In this document: positions 14,814-43,753 of the stretch, in pieces
Numbering within the stretch: position 1 is the stretch's first letter
How the letters are laid out: each line of letters begins with the position of its first letter
From: Pontiella sp.
GTDB lineage: Bacteria; Verrucomicrobiota; Kiritimatiellia; Kiritimatiellales; Pontiellaceae
Assembly: GCA_050290185.1 (NCBI GenBank)
Contig: JBNKHE010000007.1
Coordinates: 96,001 to 160,000, forward strand
Direction: 5' to 3'
DNA length: 64,000 bases
Translations under genes and position numbers: made by a program
The notes under the pieces: model-generated
Told to the model about the DNA's origin: nothing
The model's database searches: none
Seen by the model: only the letters and a program-made list of their open reading frames with translations

Positions 14814-15761
14814 ATGGGTAAAACTTTCAGCAAAGTGGCTGTTTTGATGGGCGGTGTTTCATCGGAACGTGAAATTTCATTGAAATCGGGCAAAGCGATT
14901 GCGCAGGGACTGCGCGAGGGTGGATATGAGGTGCGGGAAATAGACATAACCGCAAAGCAGTTTTCCATCCCTGCGGATATCGAGGCGGTTTTTGTGGCGT
15001 TGCATGGGCAGTTTGGCGAGGATGGAGAAATTCAACAGATCCTGTCCGAAAAAGGAATGCCCTTCACGGGCTCGGGGCCGGAATCCAGCCGGGTCTCCTT
15101 CGACAAGATTCTAACCCGCCGGCAACTGGAGAAAAACGGCATTCCGATACCCCGGGGCGAGGTGGTTAAGAAAGCTTCGGACCGGACTGTTCCCGTACCG
15201 CTGGTGGTGAAACCACCCCGCGAAGGATCAAGCGTAGGGTGCTATCTGGTTTTCGAGGAACATGCGTGGGAGTCGGCATTCGAGGGCGCGGTGCAGTATT
15301 CCGGGGAGGTGCTGGTGGAGGAATACATCCCGGGTCGCGAGCTGACGGTCGGGGTGGTGGAGTCGATATCGCACGAGCCTTCGGCATCCGCTGTAGCTGC
15401 AGCAGACCAGTCGGCGACCAGACTCGTGCTGCCGGTGGTGGAGATAAAGACGGTGTCGGAGTGGTATGACTTCGATGCAAAATATGTGACCGGCGATACG
15501 CAGTATGTTGTACCTGCCGAGCTGGATGACGAGACAACTGTGCGGTTGCAATCCATCGCCCTTGCGACATTCGACTGCCTGGGAGCCTCGGGCTTTGGCC
15601 GGGTCGATTTCAGGCTGTCTCCCGAAGGCAAACCCTATGTGCTGGAGCTGAATGCCATCCCCGGATTTACCGCCACAAGTCTGCTCCCTAAAGCCGCTCA
15701 GGCGCATGGAATCGGTTTTTCAGAGCTTTGTTGTCGAATCATGGAAATGGCTCACTTGTGA
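14814..15761 (+). CDS. ddl: D-alanine--D-alanine ligase (last codons supplied by the island)
   Basis: GGVSSEREISLKSG, LHGQFGEDG, EGSSVG, RVDF and LELNAIPG motifs. Confidence 0.96.
   Translation: MGKTFSKVAVLMGGVSSEREISLKSGKAIAQGLREGGYEVREIDITAKQFSIPADIEAVFVALHGQFGEDGEIQQILSEKGMPFTGSGPESSRVSFDKILTRRQLEKNGIPIPRGEVVKKASDRTVPVPLVVKPPREGSSVGCYLVFEEHAWESAFEGAVQYSGEVLVEEYIPGRELTVGVVESISHEPSASAVAAADQSATRLVLPVVEIKTVSEWYDFDAKYVTGDTQYVVPAELDDETTVRLQSIALATFDCLGASGFGRVDFRLSPEGKPYVLELNAIPGFTATSLLPKAAQAHGIGFSELCCRIMEMAHL
15736..15754 (+). repeat. attL direct repeat
   Basis: GAATCATGGAAATGGCTCA, 18/19 identical to 31357..31375. Confidence 0.9.
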
Positions 15762-15857: not shown

Positions 15858-17570
15858 ATGATGACACCAATCAATATTCCGCATTCCAAGCCTAGAGGGA
15901 AGCGAGGCACCTATGTCTATCGCCGAAGTATTCCGAAGGAGCTGCGGGAGAGTGTTGGGCAATCTGAGTATGTGATTTCGCTGAAGACCTCCAATCCCGT
16001 TGAGGCTGCTCCTCTGGCCATTGCCTTGGATGAGGAGCATACAGCTCTCTTCAAGCGTCTTAAGAGGCAGCTGGCGGAAGGACGTAAACCTGTTGACCCA
16101 TTAGCCGCCTTCAACGAGGTGCTAGCTCCCATGGTTCGCGATAGGGTAAACAGCTTTCTTAACGATGATGATTTCCTTGGCTGTTCAACCGAAGCCCTAG
16201 AAGAATACCACTGGCAGCTTCAACAATGCCATGACCGACTCTTCAATCTCCCTGAACTGGGTGACTGTCTATTGGATATCCATCTGGTTCATGAGGGGGC
16301 AACGATGACTCTCAAGGATTCCATGAGGCGTTTCTGTGGGTGGGTCGAGAGTATGCCCTATGGGACATCTATTCGGCTGTGGCGAAGAGTGCGCGGTCTG
16401 TTTGATGAAGCTACTAAAGCTCTAGGCGACGGGATCAAGGAGGAGTTGGAGAATGCATCTCCAGCCGGTTGGGAGCCTAGACAGTTGGTGGCCGCTGCCG
16501 CCGTCACGAAGAGAGATGACTCCAGAGGCCGAAGTTTGCGGGTAATCCTGAAGGAGTACCTTGGGTTAAACACCAAACGTGCTCCGAGTGCTATTCAAGG
16601 GATGACAAGCGACTTGGACTTATTCTTGGAGTTCTGTCAGAAGAGCGATATGGCCGTGACGGATGTGACGAAAGCAATGCTTACCGCCTTTCGGGATGAC
16701 TGCCTAGTGAAGCTGCCAGCCCAAAGGCACAGGAAGAAGGAACTGAAGGGTAAGAGTCTCTCCGAATGTATTCGTATCACAGAGAAGGAAGGCTTTGCCA
16801 AGCTGACTCCTGTCACCATACATGGCCGCTTTAAGACCCTCAGGACGCTCCTAGAACACGCGAAGACCGAGGGTGATATCCAGAGGAACCCAGCGGCCAA
16901 CATCAAGGCGGGGGAGCGTATGAAGGTCATTGCAGGGGGCGGCATGATGAATAAGAAGGCGTTCACCGCTGATGAGACAGAGGAAATGAAGAAGCTCATT
17001 GGGGATGAAAGCTTCAATATTTGGTTGGAGACCCCCGACTTTAAGTGGATTACGGCAATCGGCTATCACCAAGGCATGCGGTTAGGGGAAGTAACCCAGC
17101 TACAGAGCAAGGATGTTTACCTAGATCAAAGTAGTGGGGCGTATGTCATTTCGATTAATGATGATCACGAGAAAAAGAGTCTCAAGAAGCAATCCTCTAG
17201 GCGAATCATTCCGTTGCATCCTGAGCTACGCAAAATGGGGTTTCTTGAATACATCGATGCCAAGGGTATGCAGCCAGATGATTTCATCTGGTCTCAGAGT
17301 CTGAGCTGGGAGCCAAAGTGTAAATGGTATGGTAAGTATACTTCCACATACAGACGAAAGATTGCACCTGTGGCAGTACCTGATGCAGACCGGAGGAGGG
17401 AGCTTAAAGGATATCATTCGCTACGGCATTCGGCAATCTCTCGGATGCTGGCCAATGGGATTCCTGAAGATGAACGCAAAGGTATCGTAGGGCATAGTGC
17501 GGGGGATGTTCATGCTGGATATGCTGGGGGCATTACCGTTCAGCAGATGGCTAAATGGATGACCTATTAG
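15858..17570 (+). CDS. Tyrosine integrase with DUF6538-like N-terminus
   Basis: YVYRRSIPKEL...ISLKT N-terminus; catalytic GMRLGE, HSLRH, GH and Y (HAGY). Confidence 0.93.
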   Translation: MMTPINIPHSKPRGKRGTYVYRRSIPKELRESVGQSEYVISLKTSNPVEAAPLAIALDEEHTALFKRLKRQLAEGRKPVDPLAAFNEVLAPMVRDRVNSFLNDDDFLGCSTEALEEYHWQLQQCHDRLFNLPELGDCLLDIHLVHEGATMTLKDSMRRFCGWVESMPYGTSIRLWRRVRGLFDEATKALGDGIKEELENASPAGWEPRQLVAAAAVTKRDDSRGRSLRVILKEYLGLNTKRAPSAIQGMTSDLDLFLEFCQKSDMAVTDVTKAMLTAFRDDCLVKLPAQRHRKKELKGKSLSECIRITEKEGFAKLTPVTIHGRFKTLRTLLEHAKTEGDIQRNPAANIKAGERMKVIAGGGMMNKKAFTADETEEMKKLIGDESFNIWLETPDFKWITAIGYHQGMRLGEVTQLQSKDVYLDQSSGAYVISINDDHEKKSLKKQSSRRIIPLHPELRKMGFLEYIDAKGMQPDDFIWSQSLSWEPKCKWYGKYTSTYRRKIAPVAVPDADRRRELKGYHSLRHSAISRMLANGIPEDERKGIVGHSAGDVHAGYAGGITVQQMAKWMTY

Positions 17571-17730: not shown

Positions 17731-20136
17731 TTAGGATTGTTGGGGTCTTTTCTTTATGAGTTTCCGGAACTGAGGTTGCTTGTTCCTCCATGTGAACCAA
17801 TACTCTACTCCAAGATAGAGCTCGTTCGTTCTGTCACAGATCTCAAAAAAATCCTTGTTATAAGATGCGTATTGCTTGTGTTTGTCGCTGGCTTTCTTCC
17901 ACGCTGTTGGCAAACCATTATGATCGGCACAGAGCTCTGTGCTGGTTAAAATCAGAATGTTATTGTATGGGCGACCAGCAACACGATTCGCTCTCGCCTT
18001 GTTTACCAATGGTTTAATCAACTTAATCTCATCAGGGCTCAACTTATCTTTCATGGTTGAAAAAACGAGAGTACAGCGTGGAAACTCTCTACCTAAGCGA
18101 CTCATGCGAGTGACATCTTTCTTTTCGAACAAGTTGAATGTTTTGCATTCTGCAAATATTACGATTTTCTTCGGGGCACCGTATCTTGATTCTTCGAAGA
18201 GAATCCCTAGGTCTGCTTCTAGGGGTTTTTGAGCTCCACCTTCTGATTTGCGAGCAGTAAAACTCATCATGGTAGTAGTAGCACCTTCAAAGACGCTTCT
18301 AAAAAACCTGAGTGACAGCAATACAGAGTAAGCACCTTGTGCGCTATTGGGTAAGCTAAACGGGCCGATCGTTCGGTAAGTCCATTTTAGAGCGTCAGGA
18401 TCTCCTGATGGTATTTCATAGGAGTCCAGACATTTTGGACACATCAGTGTGTAATCAGCTTCTGTGATTGAGAACCAAGACCGTTGCTGGCAAGTTGGGC
18501 ATTGACACTCTATCCCTAGTTGAAGCGCTCTACTATTTATTAACCCTTCGATAGTTCTGGTTCCGTCATCGTATAATCCTTCTTTATTGGCGATTTGTTT
18601 AATTCTATCGCGAAGTGCTTTCTTTTTTATGGTTTTCCCTTCGGAGTGCTCTGAAAGTAGCTTGATAACTCCCTTCGTAGCTAGAATGCCAATATACAAC
18701 TCTCCTCCGAGTTGCTTCAGCATTTGGGTTGCGATTCGTCCGGCTGTAGAGAGCTCAATATCCCATCCCTTTGCCTTCATCCATGAAGAAAAAACAGTTG
18801 TAGGGTTTAGAATCGGAACATGGATGTTCCATCTCGGAAAATCAGCTAAGTAAACTAGACCTTTTTTCGATAAGCGCCACTTAGGGTAGAACAATGGGAT
18901 ATGCATAGTTCTCTCATCATCTGGAAGAACTTCTGCTACAAGTTCGGAGATGGAATAGATGCGTACTTTTACTTCATTCGCAAAATGGGGGCCTCCACTC
19001 TGAGGGTATTTGGTAGCAAAAGATGGCGCTAAAGTATCGACGGTGGCTCGGTCTCCTGATACGCGTATATCATAACGGTCTACATTATCGCTCTCAATGG
19101 TATAGCTTACATTCTCCTGCGACTCATTTTGCCATATATGCGGGTACCAAGGTTGAGTAAAAAACTTAGCGTCACTCTTCTGCTCTGCAATAACTGCTCT
19201 TATATCCGAGATAAATGAATCTAGTTGATCTTTGGAGATATGAGCACTTGGTATTATAGTTGCCGCACGAATATCTGCCGGATTATCGGGGTTCCGATAT
19301 GTTTCTTCCGCCAAGAACTTAAACACTTGATCCAGTACGCTCTCGGTATCACTAACCTGAATCGGGATTGGTATTATGTTTCGCGCTGTCGCTCTGAGGT
19401 TTAAGTAATCGATGACATCTAGCGGCTGTGAAGCATCTAAGACGAATACACTTGAGTTGCCTAGGTGAAGATTTGTGGTTCGTACATCGCCGATGTAAAG
19501 AGAGGTCATTCTGCGATGAAATAAGTTCTGTGGATCAAGCAGGTCGAGAAAGTTGGTTAGTGAACAATCCACATCAACAAACTCTAGGGCGCTATACATT
19601 CCGCTCTTGGAATACAGTTCCTCAACTTCTTTACAGAGCGAGCCAAAGACAGAGGACAAAAAGAGTTTGTAAGGATGTCCGAAGGCTGGTGTTACTATTT
19701 TTGGGAGGTTACTGGGCTTAAATCGAAGCTCTTTTCTGTAATAATGGCGAAGTACCTCAAACGCACTAATACCATGAGAGATCGTTCCATCATTGCGAAT
19801 GCTTGCGATGAGGTCTGAAGCATATATGACTTCCCTGTTTTTACATGAAGAATGTTCCTTATCGGTTTTGTGGAAGCAGACAATGAAGTCTGGATCATAG
19901 CTATCTATATAACCTTTAACAAGGTCTGCTGGCTTCGCATTCGATGCAAATCGTTTTTTCCAGCTGCTAGGAATCCTTCTCAATAAAGGTATTGTTGGAT
20001 TATATTGTCCACCCCAAAGGAATGTATTGATTTCTATGGCCTTCAATAGTGATTTGGTGTCGTTGGGCCGAACCAGGAATGCGAGTCGTAATGGTCGAAG
20101 AGTTTGTTCAATATTGACATTGTCCATCGCATTCAT
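17731..20136 (-). CDS. 801-aa protein with Zn ribbon and C-terminal PD-(D/E)xK-like nuclease; putative defence protein
   Basis: CPTC...CPKC; EADL...FAECK; AAGGA RBS; AT-rich cargo gene. Confidence 0.7.
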   Translation of the reverse strand: MNAMDNVNIEQTLRPLRLAFLVRPNDTKSLLKAIEINTFLWGGQYNPTIPLLRRIPSSWKKRFASNAKPADLVKGYIDSYDPDFIVCFHKTDKEHSSCKNREVIYASDLIASIRNDGTISHGISAFEVLRHYYRKELRFKPSNLPKIVTPAFGHPYKLFLSSVFGSLCKEVEELYSKSGMYSALEFVDVDCSLTNFLDLLDPQNLFHRRMTSLYIGDVRTTNLHLGNSSVFVLDASQPLDVIDYLNLRATARNIIPIPIQVSDTESVLDQVFKFLAEETYRNPDNPADIRAATIIPSAHISKDQLDSFISDIRAVIAEQKSDAKFFTQPWYPHIWQNESQENVSYTIESDNVDRYDIRVSGDRATVDTLAPSFATKYPQSGGPHFANEVKVRIYSISELVAEVLPDDERTMHIPLFYPKWRLSKKGLVYLADFPRWNIHVPILNPTTVFSSWMKAKGWDIELSTAGRIATQMLKQLGGELYIGILATKGVIKLLSEHSEGKTIKKKALRDRIKQIANKEGLYDDGTRTIEGLINSRALQLGIECQCPTCQQRSWFSITEADYTLMCPKCLDSYEIPSGDPDALKWTYRTIGPFSLPNSAQGAYSVLLSLRFFRSVFEGATTTMMSFTARKSEGGAQKPLEADLGILFEESRYGAPKKIVIFAECKTFNLFEKKDVTRMSRLGREFPRCTLVFSTMKDKLSPDEIKLIKPLVNKARANRVAGRPYNNILILTSTELCADHNGLPTAWKKASDKHKQYASYNKDFFEICDRTNELYLGVEYWFTWRNKQPQFRKLIKKRPQQS

Positions 20137-20691: not shown

Positions 20692-20898
20692 GGCACCCAT
20701 GCATGCTTCATCCCGCATATGAACCAGATTCTTAGGTCTGTATTCTGCCGCATGTATGGCGACACGAATATGCTGGCTGAGTTCAAGAGGCAGATCGAAG
20801 AGCAGAGCGAGGGCTTCGATGTGGAATACCCTGAGCCGCCTACCCAAGGCGGTCTCGATGTAAGTCAGGTGATGTATTCGCAGTACTTTTTTGCCTAG
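20692..20898 (+). pseudogene. C-terminal fragment of a T7-type single-subunit RNA polymerase
   Basis: GTHAC..HMNQILRSVFCRMY...LAEF...PEPPTQGGLDVSQVMYSQYFFA* matches the post-motif-C end of T7/mitochondrial-type RNAPs; the upstream HDS motif is missing. Confidence 0.85.
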
Positions 20899-20940
20899 CC
20901 TGCATCACTAGTGTTACACCCTGTCAGAGAGGGTGTTGCG

Positions 20941-20963
20941 CTTATTCCCTCACTATAGGAAGA
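20941..20963 (+). promoter_or_regulatory. T7/T3-like phage RNAP promoter (+1 about 20958)
   Basis: CTTATTCCCTCACTATAGGAAGA vs T7 TAATACGACTCACTATAGGGAGA and T3 AATTAACCCTCACTAAAGGGAGA; 42 nt after the RNAP fragment stop. Confidence 0.75.
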
Positions 20964-21294
20964 ATGACGGGCAACTCTCCGTTTCTCTTCAAGCCACACC
21001 CGTGGCCACTCTCTTGCGTATCAGCCTCACCGCCTTCCATGGTTTTTGTTTCTCCTGTCCATGGTCGAGCGGTCGAGCATCGCTTTGGTTTTGCTGAGCT
21101 GCTTGGCTAACTTAGTGGGGAACCTATGGGCTATTGCCCGTACCCGCTCAAAGCCTCACTCAAAGATTTTCTCTCGATGCATCTCAAACCGCTGCAAATA
21201 GATAGGTACATATTTGTAGTGTTTGTGGTCGCTTCACGAGGCAGCAACTTGTTTGCCCATTCCCATTTTAATCAACCTAAGAAAGGAACCCAAA

Positions 21295-23055
21295 ATGTTA
21301 AACACAAAAGAAGTATTCGACCTTGCAAGAGCACAGAAGTTAACCCTAACGGATGATCCGTTGGCAGTCGTAAATGCGTACCCAGATAGTCTCGGTGTTC
21401 AGCTTTTCGATTGGCTTTGGGGAGAACTCGTTGAGGAAGGCCGAACGACACGCAATAAGCCAAACTTTAAATGCACCCGAACGGGAAAGGACTTGCGCGG
21501 AGTTGAAGTTAAACGTCAAGCAATGGCCGCTGTGCTGCTAGACCTCCTGTATTATGATGTCGTGGCCATCTACGGTGACGAACATATGTACACGCGCAAA
21601 GTGGGGCTTCCTGATCGATTGTCAATCAGTGGAATAGCTGTTCCTTCATGGTATCGCTATTCATCACTTTTGGTTTGGCTTGAGGCTGAACTTAAGCACC
21701 GCAACCTGTTGACTGTTTCGCAGGGGTGGCCAACTTTTCAGAACGAGAAGAGCGGCTATAAGATCACAGGTAGGCCAAACCTTTGGGCTGCTGATGGGCG
21801 ACTTCTGACACGACTTGAACTCGTGAAATCCTGTTCCAATCTCGCGGGGTTCTTCCCAGAGAAACGGCGGGACTGTATCGACCTGAAGCAAAACGGGGAG
21901 TCGGACTATTTACGAGCACCAGACCTCCTGATTCAAAAGAAGGATGAACTTGGTAAGGCTCAACCTTGGGCTGTATCCGGTAACTCTCTTGCTGATGAAA
22001 CCCGAAGACGTTTACTCGCAGTCAATCGCTTCAATGTTGAACATGATTGGACGGCATACCGTGCGAATCTAAGTGATGCCTTGAGTATAAGCGACACTCT
22101 TCGGGAACGGTTACTGTTTGCTCAAAATATGGATGACAAGCAGAAGCGGAAAGCTCGTCGAAGAGCTGCCGCTGATATGCTCGGTGTAACACACGGAGGG
22201 GACATTGAGTTCCGCAAGACCGTTGAGGTGATGCCGAATGTCTTCTCCAATGTTGAAGTGCCGGTAGGTGTCTTATCAAAGCAGTCAGAGCCGATCTTCA
22301 AGAACATACCTGTTGACCGTCGAGGGAACACGATGCTTCTGGAGTACGAGCGGAAGCTGGTTGACCCATGGCACACCATGCGGATTGCTGGCAGTCGGTC
22401 GGAAGAGATGGCTATCGGTCGAATGTATTGGAGCATGTCGCATATTCAGAAAGCACTTCGATTTTCACTTCAGGTGAACGGAGAGTCGACAGTTGAATGG
22501 GACTTCAAAAATATGCATCCGAAAATCTTGTACGGTCGAGCCGGTATCAAAGAGGTAACCCATGACCTCTATGATTATGTGTGTGATGAAGTGGGGGACT
22601 CAGAGCTGGTCTTGAGGCCACTCGTTAAGGTGCTCTTCAATGCCATGATAAATGCTAAGACCCCCGATGAGGCATTTCGTGCCGCTAATCGGAGCATGTA
22701 TAAGAATCCACACCAACCAAAGAAGCGGGATGTTTGGCTACCCATTGCGGAGAAAGTCAGAGGTCTAAACAATGGAGTTTACTCTTCGGATTTTCTGATG
22801 CCGATTATCCGAAAAGTTCATGCCCCCATTGCCGATTATTTCTGTACCGGTATTGGAGTAGAGCTTCAGGCTGTGGACGCTGAGATCGCTCTGAGGGTCA
22901 TGGAAAGATGTACTCAAGATTACGGACAACCGGTTGTCGGTATTCACGATTCGTTCCGTGTCCAAGAGTCGGCTGAGAGTTCGCTCAGACAGGTGATGAG
23001 GGAAGTCTCGGAAGAGATTCTAGATGGGACGGTTCTGGAGATAACGAAGAGCTGA
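21295..23055 (+). CDS. Divergent superfamily-A (PolA/T7-RNAP-like) polymerase with no recognisable exonuclease domain
   Basis: GRMY; motif A EWDFKNMHPKILY; motif B RPLVKVLFNAMIN; motif C GIHDSF; AAAGGA RBS before ATG 21295. Confidence 0.8.
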   Translation: MLNTKEVFDLARAQKLTLTDDPLAVVNAYPDSLGVQLFDWLWGELVEEGRTTRNKPNFKCTRTGKDLRGVEVKRQAMAAVLLDLLYYDVVAIYGDEHMYTRKVGLPDRLSISGIAVPSWYRYSSLLVWLEAELKHRNLLTVSQGWPTFQNEKSGYKITGRPNLWAADGRLLTRLELVKSCSNLAGFFPEKRRDCIDLKQNGESDYLRAPDLLIQKKDELGKAQPWAVSGNSLADETRRRLLAVNRFNVEHDWTAYRANLSDALSISDTLRERLLFAQNMDDKQKRKARRRAAADMLGVTHGGDIEFRKTVEVMPNVFSNVEVPVGVLSKQSEPIFKNIPVDRRGNTMLLEYERKLVDPWHTMRIAGSRSEEMAIGRMYWSMSHIQKALRFSLQVNGESTVEWDFKNMHPKILYGRAGIKEVTHDLYDYVCDEVGDSELVLRPLVKVLFNAMINAKTPDEAFRAANRSMYKNPHQPKKRDVWLPIAEKVRGLNNGVYSSDFLMPIIRKVHAPIADYFCTGIGVELQAVDAEIALRVMERCTQDYGQPVVGIHDSFRVQESAESSLRQVMREVSEEILDGTVLEITKS

Positions 23056-23288
23056 CCGAAGAACCGCATTGCAGCTGGCAGTAAGGCTGGCTGCTAACTG
23101 CTTCCACTTATTGCCAGCTCTGCTGAGATGGGAAGATACCACGGAGAGTTGCAACCTCCTGTAGGTATCATTTCCTCCTGTCTCGCTTCGCTCCACTAGG
23201 ATTGCACAGGTTATCCCTGCACATGTCGTAACATCTTAAACATTAATGAGAAAGGAGGGGTCGAGTATCCCGAACAATAAGGAGCAAA

Positions 23289-24092
23289 ATGCAAAAATCA
23301 AACAGAAGAAACTTCACGCCTTCACCCGTAGCTGTAGCAATGGCTTCCCCCAAAGGTGGACTGAGCCGCGAGGAACAGATAAGGCGTGACCGTCTGGCCA
23401 ACGCAAAGAAAGGATCGAATGAGGCCGTAAAGGTGAAGGCCAAAAGCCGTCGCTATGGGTTGACCCAGAAGGGGAATAGCTCCGGCATACCTTGTGTCGG
23501 TCTCGCTCGCTTCAACCCTAAGATGCTGAGTCGCCATACTCGGAAAAGCATTCTGCCCGCTCAGTTGGGGGTAGCTGCTGCATTGGGCCACCTACCAAGA
23601 GGAGATAAAACTCTCCCACTCCAAGCAATATGGCGACAACGTACACGAGCCGGTAGCGGCGACCGTGTAGCAAGGGGCTTGAAGCCAGCCAAGACGCGAG
23701 TAACAACGTGTCTCTTGGAAGCTGGCGTTTGGTCTGACACCGATAACGATGTCATTGCGGGGAAGTTCAAAGGATCTCACCTTGGATGCCAAGCGGCAGC
23801 GGATGGCTACTGCGAGAAACTCGGACAATGCCGCCTTTTGCTAGAGACCCTCGTGAGGCTTGGAGAGTTCTCTCAGCTACCCGATGCCAATCAGCGTCAA
23901 GATAAGCTACTGCATCTTCCTTCAAGTCGTACCTGTTGCGTAGGCTGGAAGCGGCTCCTGTACTGTCTGCTGCTGCCGACCAAATGCGCGGACTTCATGA
24001 CTGACTCAGCGCGTAACCTTGTTGCTCAACTGGCTAGGAACGCTGGGCTAACCGTTGACCGCCATGGGAACTGCGAGGAGCCGAAACGATGA
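23289..24092 (+). CDS. Hypothetical basic protein
   Basis: TAAGGAG RBS; 267-aa Lys/Arg-rich ORF co-oriented with the polymerase. Confidence 0.7.
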   Translation: MQKSNRRNFTPSPVAVAMASPKGGLSREEQIRRDRLANAKKGSNEAVKVKAKSRRYGLTQKGNSSGIPCVGLARFNPKMLSRHTRKSILPAQLGVAAALGHLPRGDKTLPLQAIWRQRTRAGSGDRVARGLKPAKTRVTTCLLEAGVWSDTDNDVIAGKFKGSHLGCQAAADGYCEKLGQCRLLLETLVRLGEFSQLPDANQRQDKLLHLPSSRTCCVGWKRLLYCLLLPTKCADFMTDSARNLVAQLARNAGLTVDRHGNCEEPKR

Positions 24093-24177
24093 ACACAACA
24101 CAATCATGCAGCCGACTAAGCTTCAGAGAAAAAAGGGCAGTCCATACCGCCCGTGAGTGTATGGGGAAAGAAAGTAA

Positions 24178-24789
24178 ATGATTAGACAGCTAAGCTTCAC
24201 AGATGCTGTGAGGCGTGAGGCTCTTGCTAAAAGTAGACTTGAACGAGTCAACCAGAAGTTAGAAGCCATAGGGGATAATAAGTCCTCAACGATGAAGCGA
24301 GAGCTTCTGTCGAAGCGGGAACTGCTGCTGAAAAAGAAAGAAAGGCTTGAAGTGACCCTTCGAGATATTCAGCAGATGGTTGCTGCACACCAAACCAGAA
24401 CCGGTAAGGAACTTCCATATGTTCGGCATTGTCAGTTGAAGGCTGAGGCTGATGCCAAGGAACAACTGAGAGTAGAGCTTGAGCATCTGAAAGCAACTGC
24501 AACAGAACTCCCTGAGGGTGGCAAGGTAGTCAATGACTCCGATGCCATTCTTCAAGGTGTGAGTCAAGAAGCGTTGGACGCTGGGTTGCTCCAGATTCAA
24601 GAAACTCTCAGTGGTTTACTTAGAGGGAAGCCTCTGGTTGAAGTCCCCTCAGATGTTAAGCGTACACCGCCCAAGCCAAAGCCCAAGGTATCACCTGTAG
24701 CTGCCCCGATGAATAAACCCACGGTTGCACCTGCTCTAGACCTGAGCGGTCTTGATGAACTCTTGGCGGAATGCGAGGCGTTGCCGTGA
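24178..24789 (+). CDS. Hypothetical coiled-coil protein
   Basis: Heptad-rich N-terminal half, Pro/Lys linker, acidic tail. Confidence 0.75.
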   Translation: MIRQLSFTDAVRREALAKSRLERVNQKLEAIGDNKSSTMKRELLSKRELLLKKKERLEVTLRDIQQMVAAHQTRTGKELPYVRHCQLKAEADAKEQLRVELEHLKATATELPEGGKVVNDSDAILQGVSQEALDAGLLQIQETLSGLLRGKPLVEVPSDVKRTPPKPKPKVSPVAAPMNKPTVAPALDLSGLDELLAECEALP

Positions 24790-25277
24790 GACATCCAGAA
24801 CATTCAAGGCACTACAGCCTAGAAGCAAGGCAGAAGCTGGATGCTATCTATCGGCGCATTGATCGAAACCAAATGATGAAGGAAGCAGAGCAGCTAAAGT
24901 ATCCTGAAGGCCGTCTCCCCACGCCATGGCCTGAGCGGTATCAACGGCTGTATGATAAGTGGCTAGAGTTGGAGCATGAAGGCTTCGCGATACGACTCCA
25001 TGAAAGTAGAAGATTCAATGATGAGCTTTCGTCCAAGTACTGCGAGAAACTCAGAAAGCTTCACTCCATCTGGCGGTACTTACCTGAAGATGATCCGCGA
25101 AAAGTTGCAACCCAAGCGGCCATCGAAAAGTTGGTGAATCATATCAATGGTCAGATGGAAGGCTTAGCCTATTTGTTTGTTCCTGAGCTGAAACCAACAA
25201 ACCGCCTTTGCGGTGGAATCTCAGATTCAGCACTCAATGAGATAGCCAGCGACTATGTTTCGAAAGCAGGGTGCTAA
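24786..25277 (+). CDS. Hypothetical protein
   Basis: GTGA start/stop overlap with the upstream gene. Confidence 0.7.
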   Translation: MRHPEHSRHYSLEARQKLDAIYRRIDRNQMMKEAEQLKYPEGRLPTPWPERYQRLYDKWLELEHEGFAIRLHESRRFNDELSSKYCEKLRKLHSIWRYLPEDDPRKVATQAAIEKLVNHINGQMEGLAYLFVPELKPTNRLCGGISDSALNEIASDYVSKAGC

Positions 25278-25278
25278 G

Positions 25279-25653
25279 ATGGATGAACCTAAGGCCACCA
25301 CAAGCGACCGACTGAGTGCTCTATGCAATCAACTCCAGGGATTGCTCAAAGTCCGCCATGAGCTGCCTCATTTGACCGTCACACCGTCCGAGTTGGTTGA
25401 TCATGAGTCAGGTATGGTTTGTCTGACTGTCACCTTCAAGGACGGCAAGAAGCTCCTCTCGGTTATCACTGGAGATGCAGACCTCAATGCAGAGGAAGGT
25501 GTCAACGATATGGTGACACTCCGAGCGGAAGCCCATCGCTGCCTATGTGGGTATCTCCAGTCTATGTGGGATATGTTGGTCGCCAACGAAGAGTTGCTTG
25601 TGGACTTTAACTCGAAGATCCGCACAAAGAGAACTCTTGGCGGCGGTGCGTAA
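25279..25653 (+). CDS. Hypothetical protein
   Basis: ATG 1 nt after the upstream stop. Confidence 0.7.
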   Translation: MDEPKATTSDRLSALCNQLQGLLKVRHELPHLTVTPSELVDHESGMVCLTVTFKDGKKLLSVITGDADLNAEEGVNDMVTLRAEAHRCLCGYLQSMWDMLVANEELLVDFNSKIRTKRTLGGGA

Positions 25654-25905
25654 TCCCATCAAGAAACAAACAGTAGGTGAAGTGGCCTGCAACCCATCAC
25701 ATTTTATCCGTCGGTGAAATGACCGATACCCTAGACTCGACGGCAGAACTTGCCGCTCTTAACCGAACGTCCCTCAACACCTAAATCAGTAATCAAGACC
25801 CCGTTGTAGCTATGCATAAAGTATGGCGCGGGGTCTTGCTGGTTTACACCGATTGTATTTTGCAATCACAGGCTCTCTCCGCCTATGGAGAAGAAAGCAT
25901 GTACG

Positions 25906-26241
25906 ATGAAAAGTTACACTGACTACACCCCTGAAGAGTTGTCCGAACTCTCCAAAGACCCAGCTAGGTTTCAAGAGCTGGTTGCCGAGGCCAACGGCGA
26001 ACTTGCAATGAAGCAGAACGCTCAGCAAGCCGAACAGGCAATCGCTCAGAACAAAGCCAATGCTGAACTTGAAGTCACCCAAGAGCGCGAACGCCAAGTT
26101 GAAGACCTCCAGCAGCATTTGGATGCTCAAGGCTACAACGCAAAAATGACCGGCAAAGGGTTGGTCTTGAATACAGCTCCAATGAACCCGCTTACGGGTC
26201 GGGCCTATGGCGACACAGGTGCAACCGTAGACGCTGGCTAG
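25906..26241 (+). CDS. Hypothetical Gln/Ala-rich coiled-coil protein
   Basis: ORF in the same direction; helical composition. Confidence 0.7.
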   Translation: MKSYTDYTPEELSELSKDPARFQELVAEANGELAMKQNAQQAEQAIAQNKANAELEVTQERERQVEDLQQHLDAQGYNAKMTGKGLVLNTAPMNPLTGRAYGDTGATVDAG

Positions 26242-26282
26242 AAACCGAACCACAATCAAAACTATCAAAAGGAATAAACTAA

Positions 26283-26843
26283 ATGAAAAACGAAGCAAAC
26301 ACCCAAGAGTTCACCCTGCCTAAGCAACTGAATATCACCACTACTGTTCCAACCTCACAGCTGCCTCTTCTTCGAGTTGAGACCGTCGAGGGAATGAGCA
26401 TTGCGGCAAACGACAGGGTGAACCTGCCTTGGTTGGCGGCCAATCTGCACCTAATCACTGAAGCCCAGTGGGAGTTCATTAAGTGCGACCTGAAGAGCAT
26501 CCTAATGGGAATCCTAATGGAGAACGTCAACGCGACGAAGCGGAACCAACGCATGGTCGAGACCGCCCAGAAGCAAGCAGACGCACGTAAGGCGGCTCAA
26601 GAGGAGTCCAACCTGTCTGACTTGAAGAAATACCTGTTGCCTTCCGAGGCCGCCATTATGGCTGCCACATGCGGGAACTCATCTTCCAAGGAAAAGAAGT
26701 TCATGGTGAACCTCTTCAAGGAGCTGGATATCATGAACCCAGACGGCTCGTGGAATGAACAGGGAATCTACATGCGAGAATGGGAGCTTGAGGCAAAACT
26801 TTTGGATCGTGAGCCTGTGAATCTCGTTGAAGTGCCGAAGTAA
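26283..26843 (+). CDS. Hypothetical protein
   Basis: AAGGA RBS; followed by a terminator. Confidence 0.75.
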   Translation: MKNEANTQEFTLPKQLNITTTVPTSQLPLLRVETVEGMSIAANDRVNLPWLAANLHLITEAQWEFIKCDLKSILMGILMENVNATKRNQRMVETAQKQADARKAAQEESNLSDLKKYLLPSEAAIMAATCGNSSSKEKKFMVNLFKELDIMNPDGSWNEQGIYMREWELEAKLLDREPVNLVEVPK

Positions 26844-26874: not shown

Positions 26875-26915
26875 AAACAGGGAGAGTGCCATTAAGGTGC
26901 TCTCTCTGTTTTTTT
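26875..26915 (+). terminator. Intrinsic terminator ending the polymerase operon
   Basis: AAACAGGGAGAGTGCC-attaa-GGTGCTCTCTCTGTTTTTTT. Confidence 0.85.
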
Positions 26916-28720: not shown

Positions 28721-29299
28721 TCATGACAGGGTGGTTTGATTCCCTCGCCGCAAATCAGCAGGAAGTAGTTTGTCGATTTCTTGTTCTGAAAACGTGAGTT
28801 CTTCGTTTACCTGTAATGCTGTCGTTGCGGCCTTATATGCCTTGCTGATAGTGCGGGGGCTTCCTTCATAAATATTTTTCAACTGCATTTGCAGAGCATC
28901 CCTTCTGTTAATTATTTCATCGGTGTTGATGACTCCGGCATTGATGTCAGTTAGAAGGGCTAAATAGCTTTCACGCACATCCCATAGGTCATTTGCTGCA
29001 TCAGAGTGTTTTTGTGAAACTTGGCCGAGGTCACTTCCTTTGACGTAGGTGTTAAGTGCTAGCAACGCCGCAGAGATAAGACCTGTTATAATGCCGCATA
29101 CTGGACTCTCTCCCAGCACGGTGGTAAATACGCCTGTGGTTGTTAATGCCGACAAGATAATCTGAATGATTTTGATGGTTGAGTTGCGTGAGAATACAAT
29201 GTCAGCACACTTTTCTTGGGTTTTGTGGCTCCATGCAACTCGACCAAAGCATTCACGGATATGCGACTCAAGGATCTTAACTTGGGAATCGGACGCCAT
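28721..29299 (-). CDS. SLATT-family 2TM effector (CBASS)
   Basis: IRECFGRVAWSHKTQEKCADI, two TM helices, LWDVRESY; overlaps the CD-NTase end. Confidence 0.85.
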   Translation of the reverse strand: MASDSQVKILESHIRECFGRVAWSHKTQEKCADIVFSRNSTIKIIQIILSALTTTGVFTTVLGESPVCGIITGLISAALLALNTYVKGSDLGQVSQKHSDAANDLWDVRESYLALLTDINAGVINTDEIINRRDALQMQLKNIYEGSPRTISKAYKAATTALQVNEELTFSEQEIDKLLPADLRRGNQTTLS

Positions 29300-30158
29300 A
29301 AATCTCTCTCCATTTCTGCTTTGCTGACCATTCTTTATTTTTTGACTGATATTCGATTGCTTCAAGTGATTTATTATATGCAACTGTCGCTTTATATCTG
29401 AAGTTTGTAATGTTTGAAATCCACTGACCACTACCTATTGCAAACCACAAGGTTTTATCTGATGGCTCGTTCTTGAGATATTGAAAAAAATCTCGGCTCA
29501 TCCAGTCATAGTACAGGTAAGATTGGTGTTTATTACTCCAGTTGGTAAGAAAACGGTAGGCGAGAGTATCGATTAGAAGACCATTAATCGGAACTGTGCA
29601 GTAATATTTCCATGCCCGAGCCATTCGGCATAGGTTTTTTAGGTTATAGTTGGTAAGAATGTTCCCGTTGTTGATGGCGTCTATTTCGGGAATCGGATTC
29701 GTGACCTTCCAGCTTCCACCATTATTTGAGTCTGCATGAGTGTATTTATTATCAGTACCTACTTTGAAAACAGGGAGTACCTCAAACTTCGTCTGGTCGG
29801 AAAAATCCACTGTAACTATCTGACCGTCCCCTTTAAGTGTGGTCGTTGGATATGTTTTGGCAATAGAGTTCTTTACAGCCTGAATCAATGCTGACTGGCC
29901 ATTTCCAAGATAATCACTGTATTGGTGGTATGTTCGTAGTGGCATTTCAAATAGCATGTCAATATCACTTACCCACCCATTAGCAGTTCCGCGACCGTAT
30001 GAACCCACGAATCTTCCTCCTGAGGTCGTGTCCATGTGCCAGAAATCAAGATTTAGGCGCTTACAAATAGCTAAATACCTATCTGAAATAGTCGACTTCA
30101 TATTTGTGGAGATCTTTAGATCATCGCTAAAGTGCTTAAAATATTGCTCTTCACTCAT
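29277..30158 (-). CDS. SMODS/CD-NTase cyclic oligonucleotide synthase (CBASS)
   Basis: VGSYGRGTA...SDIDMLF, DGQIV, FEVLP, GSWKVTNP and NLCRMARAWK motifs. Confidence 0.9.
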   Translation of the reverse strand: MSEEQYFKHFSDDLKISTNMKSTISDRYLAICKRLNLDFWHMDTTSGGRFVGSYGRGTANGWVSDIDMLFEMPLRTYHQYSDYLGNGQSALIQAVKNSIAKTYPTTTLKGDGQIVTVDFSDQTKFEVLPVFKVGTDNKYTHADSNNGGSWKVTNPIPEIDAINNGNILTNYNLKNLCRMARAWKYYCTVPINGLLIDTLAYRFLTNWSNKHQSYLYYDWMSRDFFQYLKNEPSDKTLWFAIGSGQWISNITNFRYKATVAYNKSLEAIEYQSKNKEWSAKQKWREIYGVRFPS

Positions 30159-31186: not shown

Positions 31187-31354
31187 ACATTCAAGTGCAA
31201 GACCGGTTTGGCTTGGAGATTTCTTGCTGAGGCGAAATTATTTTCATACCTCGACCTGATACAGCAATCAGTACATATTTCAAAATGTATCAAAATATCA
31301 CCTTTTGTAAGGTTTTGCATTGCAGTGATTTAGTGTTTTGGTCGAAGGTGGGCG

Positions 31355-31383
31355 TTGAATCATGGGAATGGCTCATCTATAGT
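31355..31383 (+). promoter_or_regulatory. Putative hybrid sigma70 promoter for ftsQAZ across attR
   Basis: TTGAAT-N17-TATAGT, 26 nt upstream of the ftsQ ATG. Confidence 0.6.
31357..31375 (+). repeat. attR direct repeat (displaced original ddl 3' end)
   Basis: GAATCATGGGAATGGCTCA followed by TCTATAG, reading MAHL*. Confidence 0.9.
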
Positions 31384-42211: not shown

Positions 42212-43753
42212 ATGAGCGAAAACCAGCAGGAAATCATCGAACTGCGGCATTTGTGCATCGAGGATTATGTCGGGCTTAAAAATTCCGCAGACAAGGCCTA
42301 TGAAAAAACAGGGCTGGGCACCTGGCATGAAAAGGAGATCCAAAAGCTTCTCGATATCTTTCCGGAAGGCCAGCTTTGCATTACGCTCAACGGTAAGGTG
42401 GTGGCAAGCGCACTTTCGCTTATCATCAACTACGATGATTTCGGCGATGACCACACCTACAATGAGATCCATGGAAACTACAGTTTCAAAACGCACGATT
42501 CCGACGGTGATGTGCTCTACGGGATCGATGTCTTTGTCCACCCAGAATATCGGGGTATGCGGCTGGGCCGAAGGCTCTACGAAGGACGCAAGGAGCTGTG
42601 TGAGAACCTCAATCTGCGAGCGATCATGGCGGGGGGACGCATACCAAACTACAAGATGCACGCCGATACGCTGACGCCGCGGCAATATATCGAAAAGGTC
42701 CAGGCCCGTGAAATCTATGATCCAACCCTGACCTTTCAGCTGGCCAACGGATTTCACGTGAAGAAGGTTCTGAAGAACTATCTCGAAGGCGATGTGCAGA
42801 GCCAGGAGTTTGCCACGCTGCTCGAGTGGAACAATATCTACTACCAGCCGCATCAAAAGGTACTCAACGTGGAACGCTCCGAAGTCCGCGTGGGGCTGGT
42901 GCAGTGGCAGATGCGCCCGTTCAGCGATATGGACAAACTGATGGAGCAGGCCGAGTATTTCGTCGATGCCGTGTCCGGGTACAATTCCGATTTCCTGCTG
43001 TTCCCTGAATTCTTCAACGCGCCCCTGATGGCGCCCTACAACCATCTGCCCGAAGCCAAGGCCATGCGTGAGCTGGCTGCCTTTGCAGAGCCGCTTCGAG
43101 ATCGCTTTCTCGACCTCGCTGTTTCCTACAACGTAAACATTATCACCGGCAGCATGCCGGTGATTGAGGAAACGAGACTGCTTAATATTTCCTATCTTTG
43201 CCGCCGGGATGGTACCGTCGATTATGTCCACAAAATCCACCCAACACCTTCCGAGGTGGAGTCGTGGGGCATGGTAGGCGGCGATGAGATCAAGGTGCTT
43301 GATACCGACTGCGGTAAGATCGGGATCCTGATCTGTTATGATGTTGAATTCCCCGAGGTGTGCCGGCTGATGGCGGATGATGGCATGCGCATTCTGTTTG
43401 TTCCGTTTTGCACGGATACGCAAAACGGGTTCATGCGCGTGCGCCGCTGTGCGCAGGCCCGCGCCATCGAAAACGAATGCTACGTGGCAGTGGCCGGAGC
43501 GGTCGGCAACCTGCCGAATGTCAACAACATGGATATCCAGTACGCGCAGTCGGCCGTGTTTACGCCGTCCGATTTTTCCTTCCCTACCAACACGATCAAG
43601 ACCGAGACCACACCCAATACCGAAATGGTGCTCATCGCCGATGTGGATCTCAACCTGCTGAAAGAACTGCATGCGCGCGGTAGCGTCCGCAATCTGAAGG
43701 ATCGCCGCAGGGATCTCTATCGCGTGGTTCGCCGGAACGGTTCCTCCCGGTAA
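42212..43753 (+). CDS. Bifunctional GNAT acetyltransferase / carbon-nitrogen hydrolase
   Basis: FPEGQ and VHPEYRG GNAT motifs; FPEFF, KIHPT, ICYDVEFPE nitrilase triad. Confidence 0.92.
   Translation: MSENQQEIIELRHLCIEDYVGLKNSADKAYEKTGLGTWHEKEIQKLLDIFPEGQLCITLNGKVVASALSLIINYDDFGDDHTYNEIHGNYSFKTHDSDGDVLYGIDVFVHPEYRGMRLGRRLYEGRKELCENLNLRAIMAGGRIPNYKMHADTLTPRQYIEKVQAREIYDPTLTFQLANGFHVKKVLKNYLEGDVQSQEFATLLEWNNIYYQPHQKVLNVERSEVRVGLVQWQMRPFSDMDKLMEQAEYFVDAVSGYNSDFLLFPEFFNAPLMAPYNHLPEAKAMRELAAFAEPLRDRFLDLAVSYNVNIITGSMPVIEETRLLNISYLCRRDGTVDYVHKIHPTPSEVESWGMVGGDEIKVLDTDCGKIGILICYDVEFPEVCRLMADDGMRILFVPFCTDTQNGFMRVRRCAQARAIENECYVAVAGAVGNLPNVNNMDIQYAQSAVFTPSDFSFPTNTIKTETTPNTEMVLIADVDLNLLKELHARGSVRNLKDRRRDLYRVVRRNGSSR

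Follow-up and report, generated by a model that had tools for sequence, protein, structure and literature searches.

Replication can be begun by a single protein, as with the ColE2-type Rep, which binds an origin beside its own gene and lays a primer for the host polymerase. Among the minimal family-A polymerases of mobile elements, a family of thousands has been guessed to consist of primase-polymerases (Iyer et al., 2008, PMC2579912) or of repair or RNA polymerases (Yutin et al., 2024, PMC11348598). The latter proposal stands in a section entitled 'Two novel phage PolAs', which names the protein of the Barba phages divPolA2, the second PolA of the barbaviruses, and calls its genomic context 'variable'. 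In the literature searched, the name divPolA2 appears only in that paper and its preprint, and no experimental study of the family was found; the 2020 account of CcPol-MP describes the other TV-Pols as uncharacterised (PMC7581432).

The copy considered here is encoded in a 64-kb stretch of Pontiella DNA (the window). Its family was already known, in phages as divPolA2 and otherwise probably as the helicase-free subset of the TV-Pols, which it matches, and the protein is an intact member of it, neither an orphan nor a new kind of protein. The first-pass annotation of this DNA named neither divPolA2 nor the remnant of an RNA polymerase (RNAP) described below.

The polymerase gene and its protein

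The gene, on the forward strand at 21295-23055, encodes a minimal family-A polymerase of 586 aa of the divPolA2 or stand-alone TV-Pol type (PHROG 4756); its reading frame is intact, and the ATG start is preceded by the ribosome-binding site AAGAAAGGA. The catalytic motifs, at 22417-22956 on the same strand, comprise GRMY (22417), motif A DFKNMHP (22501), motif B RPLVK...INA (22615) and motif C IHDSF (22942), each where the first-pass annotation had placed it. Its reading of a His at the steric-gate position of motif A, and of NA in place of the motif B YG, is likewise borne out: the gate is H408, and N453-A454, eight and nine residues after K445, occupy the position at which Pol I has the YG of its motif B.

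Conservation was assessed across 130 aligned proteins, the query included (150 relatives listed, minus 20 of under 350 aa). Among the basic residues, R376 and K445 are present in all 130 and R441 in 128; the aspartates D403, D424 and D552 are found in 129, 122 and 128 proteins, and H408, N453 and H551 in 125, 128 and 130, respectively. The hairpin Arg, the catalytic Asp pair, the RxxxK motif, the gate His (motif A Asp +5) and the motif B Asn are conserved at 96-100% in this set, and the mixed His/Asn motifs are therefore a signature of the family and not a peculiarity of the Pontiella copy. The catalytic Asp residues, on whose conservation in homologues the earlier assignment had been made to depend, are thus retained (D403 and D552), and the active site is intact and conserved. 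H408 at the gate could either exclude the 2'-OH, and with it rNTPs, in the manner of the family-B Tyr, or contact the 2'-OH, and does not by itself decide the choice of sugar. D424 presumably corresponds to the fingers Asp of the TV-Pol description (PMC2579912).

A full HMMER search of the representatives of 50%-identity clusters returned 3,139 relatives at E <=0.001, nearly all of which align over aa 370-580; the closest, P0002 (31% identity), is the sole full-length match. PHROG 4756 has homologues in 285 phage records, chiefly of ICP1-like and Barba phages, and tblastn with the island polymerase (P0001) found 83 phage records. Profile A1 matches the Barba10S protein at E 2e-54, and ranks 1-11 of the BFVD search (E 1e-14 to 1e-10) include Barba31A (E 9.5e-14) and two Aeromonas phage proteins. 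Of the named TV-Pol members, the phage Ma-LMM01 gave no sequence match, and the Zamilon virophage protein was matched by structure at E 9e-4, no better than a generic PolA. Pfam and NCBIfam contain no family that matches the protein; PF00940 is unmatched at E up to 1, as is phrog_414, and PDB sequence searches returned nothing significant. Close relatives were also sought by a word-based protein search, which recovered the query alone, by viral scans with P0001 and P0002, which found none with context, and by a metagenome scan, which yielded two distant loci.

The model that AlphaFold predicted from 125 sequences has a mean pLDDT of 72, with values >90 over most of the core. At similar Z, it resembles Pol I-type enzymes (Foldseek E 3e-5; VIA Z 14.3, rmsd 6.5, 279 residues aligned), a mitochondrial single-subunit RNAP (VIA Z 11.8, rmsd 3.8, 235 aligned) and T7 RNAP (VIA Z 10.5, rmsd 4.6). 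The superfamily-A fold with a PolA palm, for which the first-pass annotation had proposed structure prediction as a check, is accordingly present, and profiles and model agree with its view that the protein lacks an exonuclease or helicase domain. In the region compared with the coiled-coil thumb of TV-Pols, the model has helices at 232-248 and 259-295, and strands at 363-366 and 376-378 form the beta-hairpin that bears R376. A homologous thumb is denied to divPolA2 in the section that describes it (PMC11348598).

The N-terminal region is long, as had been noted earlier, and can now be assigned in part through weak structural matches. The domain at aa ~25-185 (21367-21849, +) is probably winged-helix-like, a weak assignment drawn from the model and newly made here: it resembles MarR, Z-beta, eS19 and TFE-alpha at VIA Z ~5, where the tool's clear level is Z 8, and the family profile matches PadR at E 0.11. 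An Atlas search with the domain gave no usable match. A further stretch, aa 297-360 (22183-22374, +), is an insertion modelled with low confidence (pLDDT <50); most relatives are 400-500 aa long and align only outside it, and P0002 has a similar stretch.

The integrase island and its RNA polymerase remnant

The polymerase gene belongs to an integrase island of 15.6 kb that separates ddl from ftsQ. These 15.6 kb are regarded as inserted because the gap between ddl and ftsQ measures 30-55 nt in 16 of 24 genus relatives. An attL-like repeat of 22 nt at the 3' end of ddl (15733-15754) forms a 91% direct repeat with an attR-like repeat before ftsQ (31354-31375); the repeats and the ddl/ftsQ spacing in relatives delimit the island. 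Next to the former lies the gene of a tyrosine integrase with DUF6538 (15858-17570, +; PF20172, PF13102, PF00589), which has one weak relative among 52 genus genomes. Sister islands were sought in six of the eight genomes, of the 24, in which ddl stands apart from ftsQ, and none contained a match to the polymerase, the RNAP or the integrase. No tRNA was found in the window, and a sigma-70 scan gave 2 sites against 5.6 expected. Four DNA runs of a single study, from one of which the assembly may derive, have contigs that list no excision joint of the att sites, a kind of record that can show presence and not absence; no RNA run was among the holders listed. In run X1, a 41-nt contig covers attL (15714-15754) at about twice the flanking depth, which hints at a graph branch.

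The remaining island genes are largely without family. A reverse-strand gene for an 801-aa protein (17731-20136) has a weak zinc-ribbon match only; with its low GC content and late zinc ribbon, it is possibly defence cargo. Downstream of the polymerase follow six co-oriented small ORFs (267, 203, 168, 132, 118 and 186 aa; 23289-26843, +), which have no significant match in Pfam, PHROG or NCBIfam, the 267-aa ORF being without a homologue. This run ends at a strong, terminator-like hairpin of 16 bp (26875-26911). A CBASS-like cargo pair (28721-30158, -) consists of a SMODS nucleotidyltransferase (PF18144, E 1e-39) and a SLATT_4 effector (PF18186, E 6e-65). Helicase, primase, SSB and reverse transcriptase were not found among the 15 island ORFs in Pfam, or among those scanned in PHROGs and NCBIfam. 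That profiles find no helicase, primase or SSB partner is described here for the first time.

Upstream of the polymerase, 20692-20898 (+) preserves the final 68 codons of a T7-type single-subunit RNAP gene, starting just past catalytic motif C (PF00940, E 5e-10; phrog_414, E 5e-15; 361 phage records match). Queries with four phage RNAPs revealed nothing more of an RNAP, be it in the island or in the rest of the genome, and PF00940 was not found among 40 genus relatives. A longer, decayed pseudogene of T7 RNAP was considered and ruled out, the match being limited to these 68 codons. The cut of the gene may be recent, because the remnant is still in frame and free of stops. The 801-aa gene occupies the place of the missing RNAP gene and would seem to have displaced it.

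The region between remnant and polymerase gene (20899-21294) folds better than its shuffles and contains, directly 3' of the remnant's stop codon, a hairpin (20910-20942, +) that is present in the minimum-energy and the centroid fold. It is followed by a site, CCCTCAC-TATA-GGAAGAATGA (TATA-GGAAGA; 20947-20967, +; T7-promoter shape at 20954, GG at 20958-20959), which faces the polymerase gene and which we take to resemble T7 promoters. Its sequence CTCACTATAGG occurs once in the 3.58-Mb genome; TATA-GG-shaped sites number one in the 395-nt upstream region and 17 in the whole window (both strands, 128 kb), the chance of such a site in 395 nt being about 5%. Because the site follows the remnant, its owner is ambiguous, and it could equally well be a phage promoter that persisted together with the RNAP remnant. 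The earlier suggestion that the polymerase acts on the nearby promoter thus gains from the similar site shapes beside its relatives and loses in the window itself, where the site could belong to the remnant.

The spacer on the other side of the gene (23056-23288, +) is also structured. Within it, positions 23067-23086 match 11 of the 12 letters of a subfamily consensus, CATTAC-N8-GTAAGG; the corresponding matrix score (1.1) is below the control median (1.8) and not significant. Two further matches lie in the window outside the island, so that the consensus is not island-specific, and the three together compare with 0.15 expected. One of them, a perfect copy at 42379-42398, may be an unrelated host palindrome. 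An action of the polymerase on structured RNA, also suggested earlier, finds no support beyond the folding z-scores of the two flanks (-3.5 upstream and -3.1 downstream, against shuffles), for neither of which Rfam holds a meaningful match.

Relatives, their neighbours and their flanking sites

The family profile matches 22 of 401 genomes of the phylum. At 17 phylum loci, an integrase, resolvase or recombinase lies within 5 kb in 13 cases, and a reverse transcriptase is fused or adjacent in two. In the latter (L036:6780-9590 and L041:6797-9512), the member is fused to (937 aa), or located next to, a UG9-like reverse transcriptase. No D5, DUF5906, primase or SSB family was found among the 118 of 152 neighbours scanned at the phylum loci. 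In the best 80 of 341 genome loci, which represent one subfamily, at least 45 have an integrase or resolvase cluster. A further scan covered 84 ORFs (32 of 39 Walker-A ORFs, 39 cluster representatives and 13 direct neighbours), among which those of bacterial genomes include no D5, DUF5906, SSB, replicative helicase or primase family; UvrD and UPF1-like helicases appear once each, and DnaB solely in a phage locus. Restriction-modification cargo is common near the relatives. At the related loci L030, L033 and L035 the polymerase is convergent with a DUF5131 gene. This bacterial context matches the helicase-free TV-Pol subset (PMC2579912), and the TV-Pol-like nature proposed in the first-pass annotation is supported by the minimal core, the conserved residues and the integrase context.

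On the viral side, the gene occurs in HK97-head satellites, T4-like phages and ICP1/Barba-like phages, among others. In the satellites it neighbours genes for head and packaging functions, and L148 has an HTH regulator upstream of it. Satellites usually keep a primase or rep gene in that slot. The loci L139, L142, L143, L145 and L148 are small HK97-head elements in which the polymerase adjoins terminase and head genes, and they resemble capsid-forming satellites whose replication slot is taken by the polymerase. In the T4-like phages (L166-L171), the gene follows uvsY-uvsW, where the gp55-gp47-gp46 block has moved away. A replacement of the late sigma factor gp55 was considered, since the slot next to uvsW is that of gp55 in kyanoviruses, and was rejected, because contig G432 carries gp55-gp47-gp46 elsewhere; the rejection holds for the G432 phage, the other four T4-like contigs being short fragments. 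ICP1, whose member ORF100 (L190:8114-9781; 555 aa) is annotated as hypothetical, has been described as being without an RNA-synthesising polymerase of its own (PMC9040626).

Since the phages that carry the gene possess a replicative polymerase and a primase of their own, the part of main elongating replicase is unlikely for the family. The first-pass annotation had offered the protein as the island's replicase/primase or a minimal RNAP; a role for the island is supported, whereas that of its main elongating enzyme is unlikely.

Two features of gene position and flanks, newly described here, are suggestive. In 12 lytic phage genomes (nine long IMG/VR contigs of the 47 viral loci and three named records, one short paralog excluded), 13 of 16 copies are located within 3 kb of a GC-skew minimum, against 2.2 expected, and in four phage genomes paralog pairs occupy two separate minima. 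This placement is suggestive only; the minima may be mere points of divergent transcription, because phage GC skew follows the coding strand and the genomes are kin. ORF100 of ICP1, at 53.1-54.8 kb, lies a few kb from the coverage peak of the theta origin reported 'near 60 kb' (PMC7145576), if coordinates are taken as comparable between isolates.

The other feature is a set of single, T7-promoter-shaped sites that flank the gene in relatives. At non-lytic loci, a strand-specific motif, CATTACT-N-TAAG, occurs within 200 nt 3' of the stop, and its reverse complement is often found before the start. CATTAC is present downstream in 20 of 81 dereplicated flanks (14 of 396 controls) and TAC[TC]-N6-9-TAAG in 18 of 81 (4 of 396 controls; 1 of 81 on the other strand), while the reverse copy AGTAATG precedes the gene in 10 of 78 (3 of 396 controls). 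A CATTAC matrix scored 25 of 81 held-out flanks above the control 95th percentile; at 12 held-out phylum loci, one downstream and one upstream flank only passed. Read on the opposite strand, the motif is AT-rich and continues with GG and purines (0.68 versus 0.49-0.51, 18 sites). Whichever flank they lie on, the sites are directed into the gene, an arrangement more in keeping with priming than with the synthesis of mRNA.

In phages, sites of the shape ATAT/TATA-G-purine, which was defined after the sequences had been inspected, precede 10 of 17 copies, compared with 44 of 902 other genes, or 33 of 652 when the control is confined to genes with a good ribosome-binding site. They are located 3' of the gene in 7 of 11 satellite-like loci, with AGAT in two more, and occur in island flanks in sense (7 of 81; controls 13 of 396) and antisense (9 of 81; controls 7 of 396). 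The copies of ICP1, Barba10S and AdhM_DL have no such site. A single matrix for the phage site was tried and abandoned, as it neither converged nor generalised and unseeded runs recovered coding sequence; the phage-flank matrix ranked top in 4 of 16 leave-one-genome-out tests and hit 6 of 81 island flanks. At L087, L095 and L139, short, iteron-like direct repeats directly follow the polymerase stop.

Possible roles and comparison with known systems

The reading that we prefer, and to which we give close to but short of an even chance, is that the enzyme initiates de novo at a specific site and thereby primes the replication of the island after its excision. As the one-gene replication initiator of an integrative element, it would bind a specific duplex site beside its own gene through its winged-helix-like N-terminal domain; a short AT-rich step would melt, and the family-A palm would start a chain de novo at GG in the manner of T7-type RNA polymerases. 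After excision of the island by the integrase, the resulting chain, most probably a short RNA, would serve host or phage replisomes as a primer. This is considered the best reading because a DNA-binding domain is combined with a bare initiating core and with single gene-side sites in either orientation, and because no partners were found while complete replisomes co-occur in the phages.

It seems unlikely that the enzyme is instead a compact, promoter-specific RNA polymerase which transcribes the genes of the element, here the six downstream ORFs, in replacement of the lost T7-type RNAP. No conserved multi-copy site precedes other genes (many of the 44 among 902 are merely ATATG start codons), the island motifs run antisense, into the gene, a T4-like carrier keeps gp55 elsewhere, and an invariant Asn replaces the Tyr of the T7 RNAP motif B Tyr-Gly, which selects rNTPs. 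Transcription would, however, agree with the GRxY and IHDSF motifs common to T7-type RNAPs, with an rmsd that is lower to mitochondrial RNAP than to Pol I, with the satellite ATAT-GG site, which faces the head operon, and with the phage site, which would give a short leader to the gene's own mRNA, and the possibility was raised for divPolA2 (PMC11348598). A dNTP-using primase-polymerase that both primes and copies the element appears similarly improbable: the top Z-scores are those of DNA polymerases, yet the protein has no exonuclease and the phage carriers already own a polymerase and a primase. Its motif A also resembles the family-B motif DxxSLYP, with an aromatic gate. Such a function was proposed for TV-Pols (PMC2579912), and CcPol-MP was shown to prime with dNTPs; CcPol, however, keeps Glu and Phe as sugar gates and needs an operon with MP and helicase (PMC7581432), whereas the island enzyme has His and Asn and no such partners were found.

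An accessory function in repair, gap filling or defence, with the polymerase as cargo of the island, we regard as quite improbable. Although a repair role was suggested for divPolA2 (PMC11348598), the two phylum loci with a reverse transcriptase recall UG9 RT-PolA (PMC9226505) and restriction-modification cargo is common nearby, the island ORFs include no reverse transcriptase, the gene is recurrently placed beside an integrase, and strand-specific flanking motifs and a position at the skew minimum would be unexpected of a general repair enzyme. Hardly credible, finally, is a stranded passenger of a decaying island that no longer acts: the RNAP remnant does testify to past rearrangement, and the contigs of the four DNA runs, which show presence and not absence, list no excision joint, but the ORF, the ribosome-binding site, the catalytic residues, the integrase and both att repeats are intact.

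Site-specific priming may extend beyond this island. It is conceivable, with the balance tilting against it, that divPolA2 and the stand-alone TV-Pols together make up a very large group of compact polymerases that initiate at specific sites, that is, one-gene RNA origin primases that recognise a T7-promoter-like, gene-side site by a winged helix; the same broad reading, held as loosely, would cover integrative islands, capsid-forming satellites and ICP1/Barba-like lytic phages. If true, this would add a primase type that is neither DnaG nor AEP nor CcPol-MP, would tie Pol I functionally to T7 RNA polymerase, and would offer a candidate theta-origin initiator for ICP1-like phages. Initiation at T7-like sites would, moreover, explain how minimal islands of an integrase plus one gene replicate, revise the claim that ICP1 has no RNA-synthesising polymerase (PMC9040626), and provide a programmable polymerase roughly one-half to two-thirds as large as T7 RNAP. 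The flanking motifs and the skew-minimum position supply concrete templates for an assay, and a question dating from 2008 becomes directly testable.

The T7-type and mitochondrial RNAPs share with the island polymerase the GRxY and IHDSF motifs and the fold, and their promoters, in the case of T7, the shape of the flanking sites, AT-rich and then GG-purine. They differ in length (808-859 aa in four phage RNAPs versus 586 aa), in the PF00940 region, which the polymerase does not match, in motif B, with Tyr(-Gly) in place of N453-A454, and in an unrelated N-terminal domain. The ColE2 Rep is an analogy in its way of working, its catalytic fold being AEP and not family A.

In UG9 RT-PolA, a reverse transcriptase is adjacent or fused (PMC9226505), whereas RVT_1 is not found among the 15 island ORFs. 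CcPol-MP and the PolA-SSB primases are likewise family-A enzymes of integrative elements that are implicated in priming (PMC7581432; bioRxiv 10.1101/2022.12.02.518924). CcPol is Pol I-like, retains the Glu gate (E174), uses dNTPs and depends on an OB-fold partner and a helicase (PMC7581432); the island polymerase has the His gate of its family, and profiles find neither partner, with the qualification that MP homologues escape sequence search. With the TV-Pols it has in common a minimal core of 400-600 aa, the hairpin Arg, two Asp, RxxxK and the lack of a nuclease, and the stand-alone TV-Pols with TV-PolN also have lambda-type integrase or resolvase neighbours and lie in restriction-modification hot spots (PMC2579912). 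No D5 helicase link was found for the island family, in difference to TV-Pols, and TV-PolN was predicted to be all-helical (PMC2579912), whereas the island model has a beta wing. The closest described system is divPolA2, which is homologous and agrees in the missing exonuclease, the intact palm, an N-terminal globular domain and fold matches to PolA and mitochondrial RNAP. The section devoted to it (PMC11348598) reports divPolA2 from lytic phages only, leaves its N-terminal domain unassigned and describes no cis-elements, whereas the Pontiella copy belongs to an integrative island of a bacterium and shows an additional insertion of ~100 aa.
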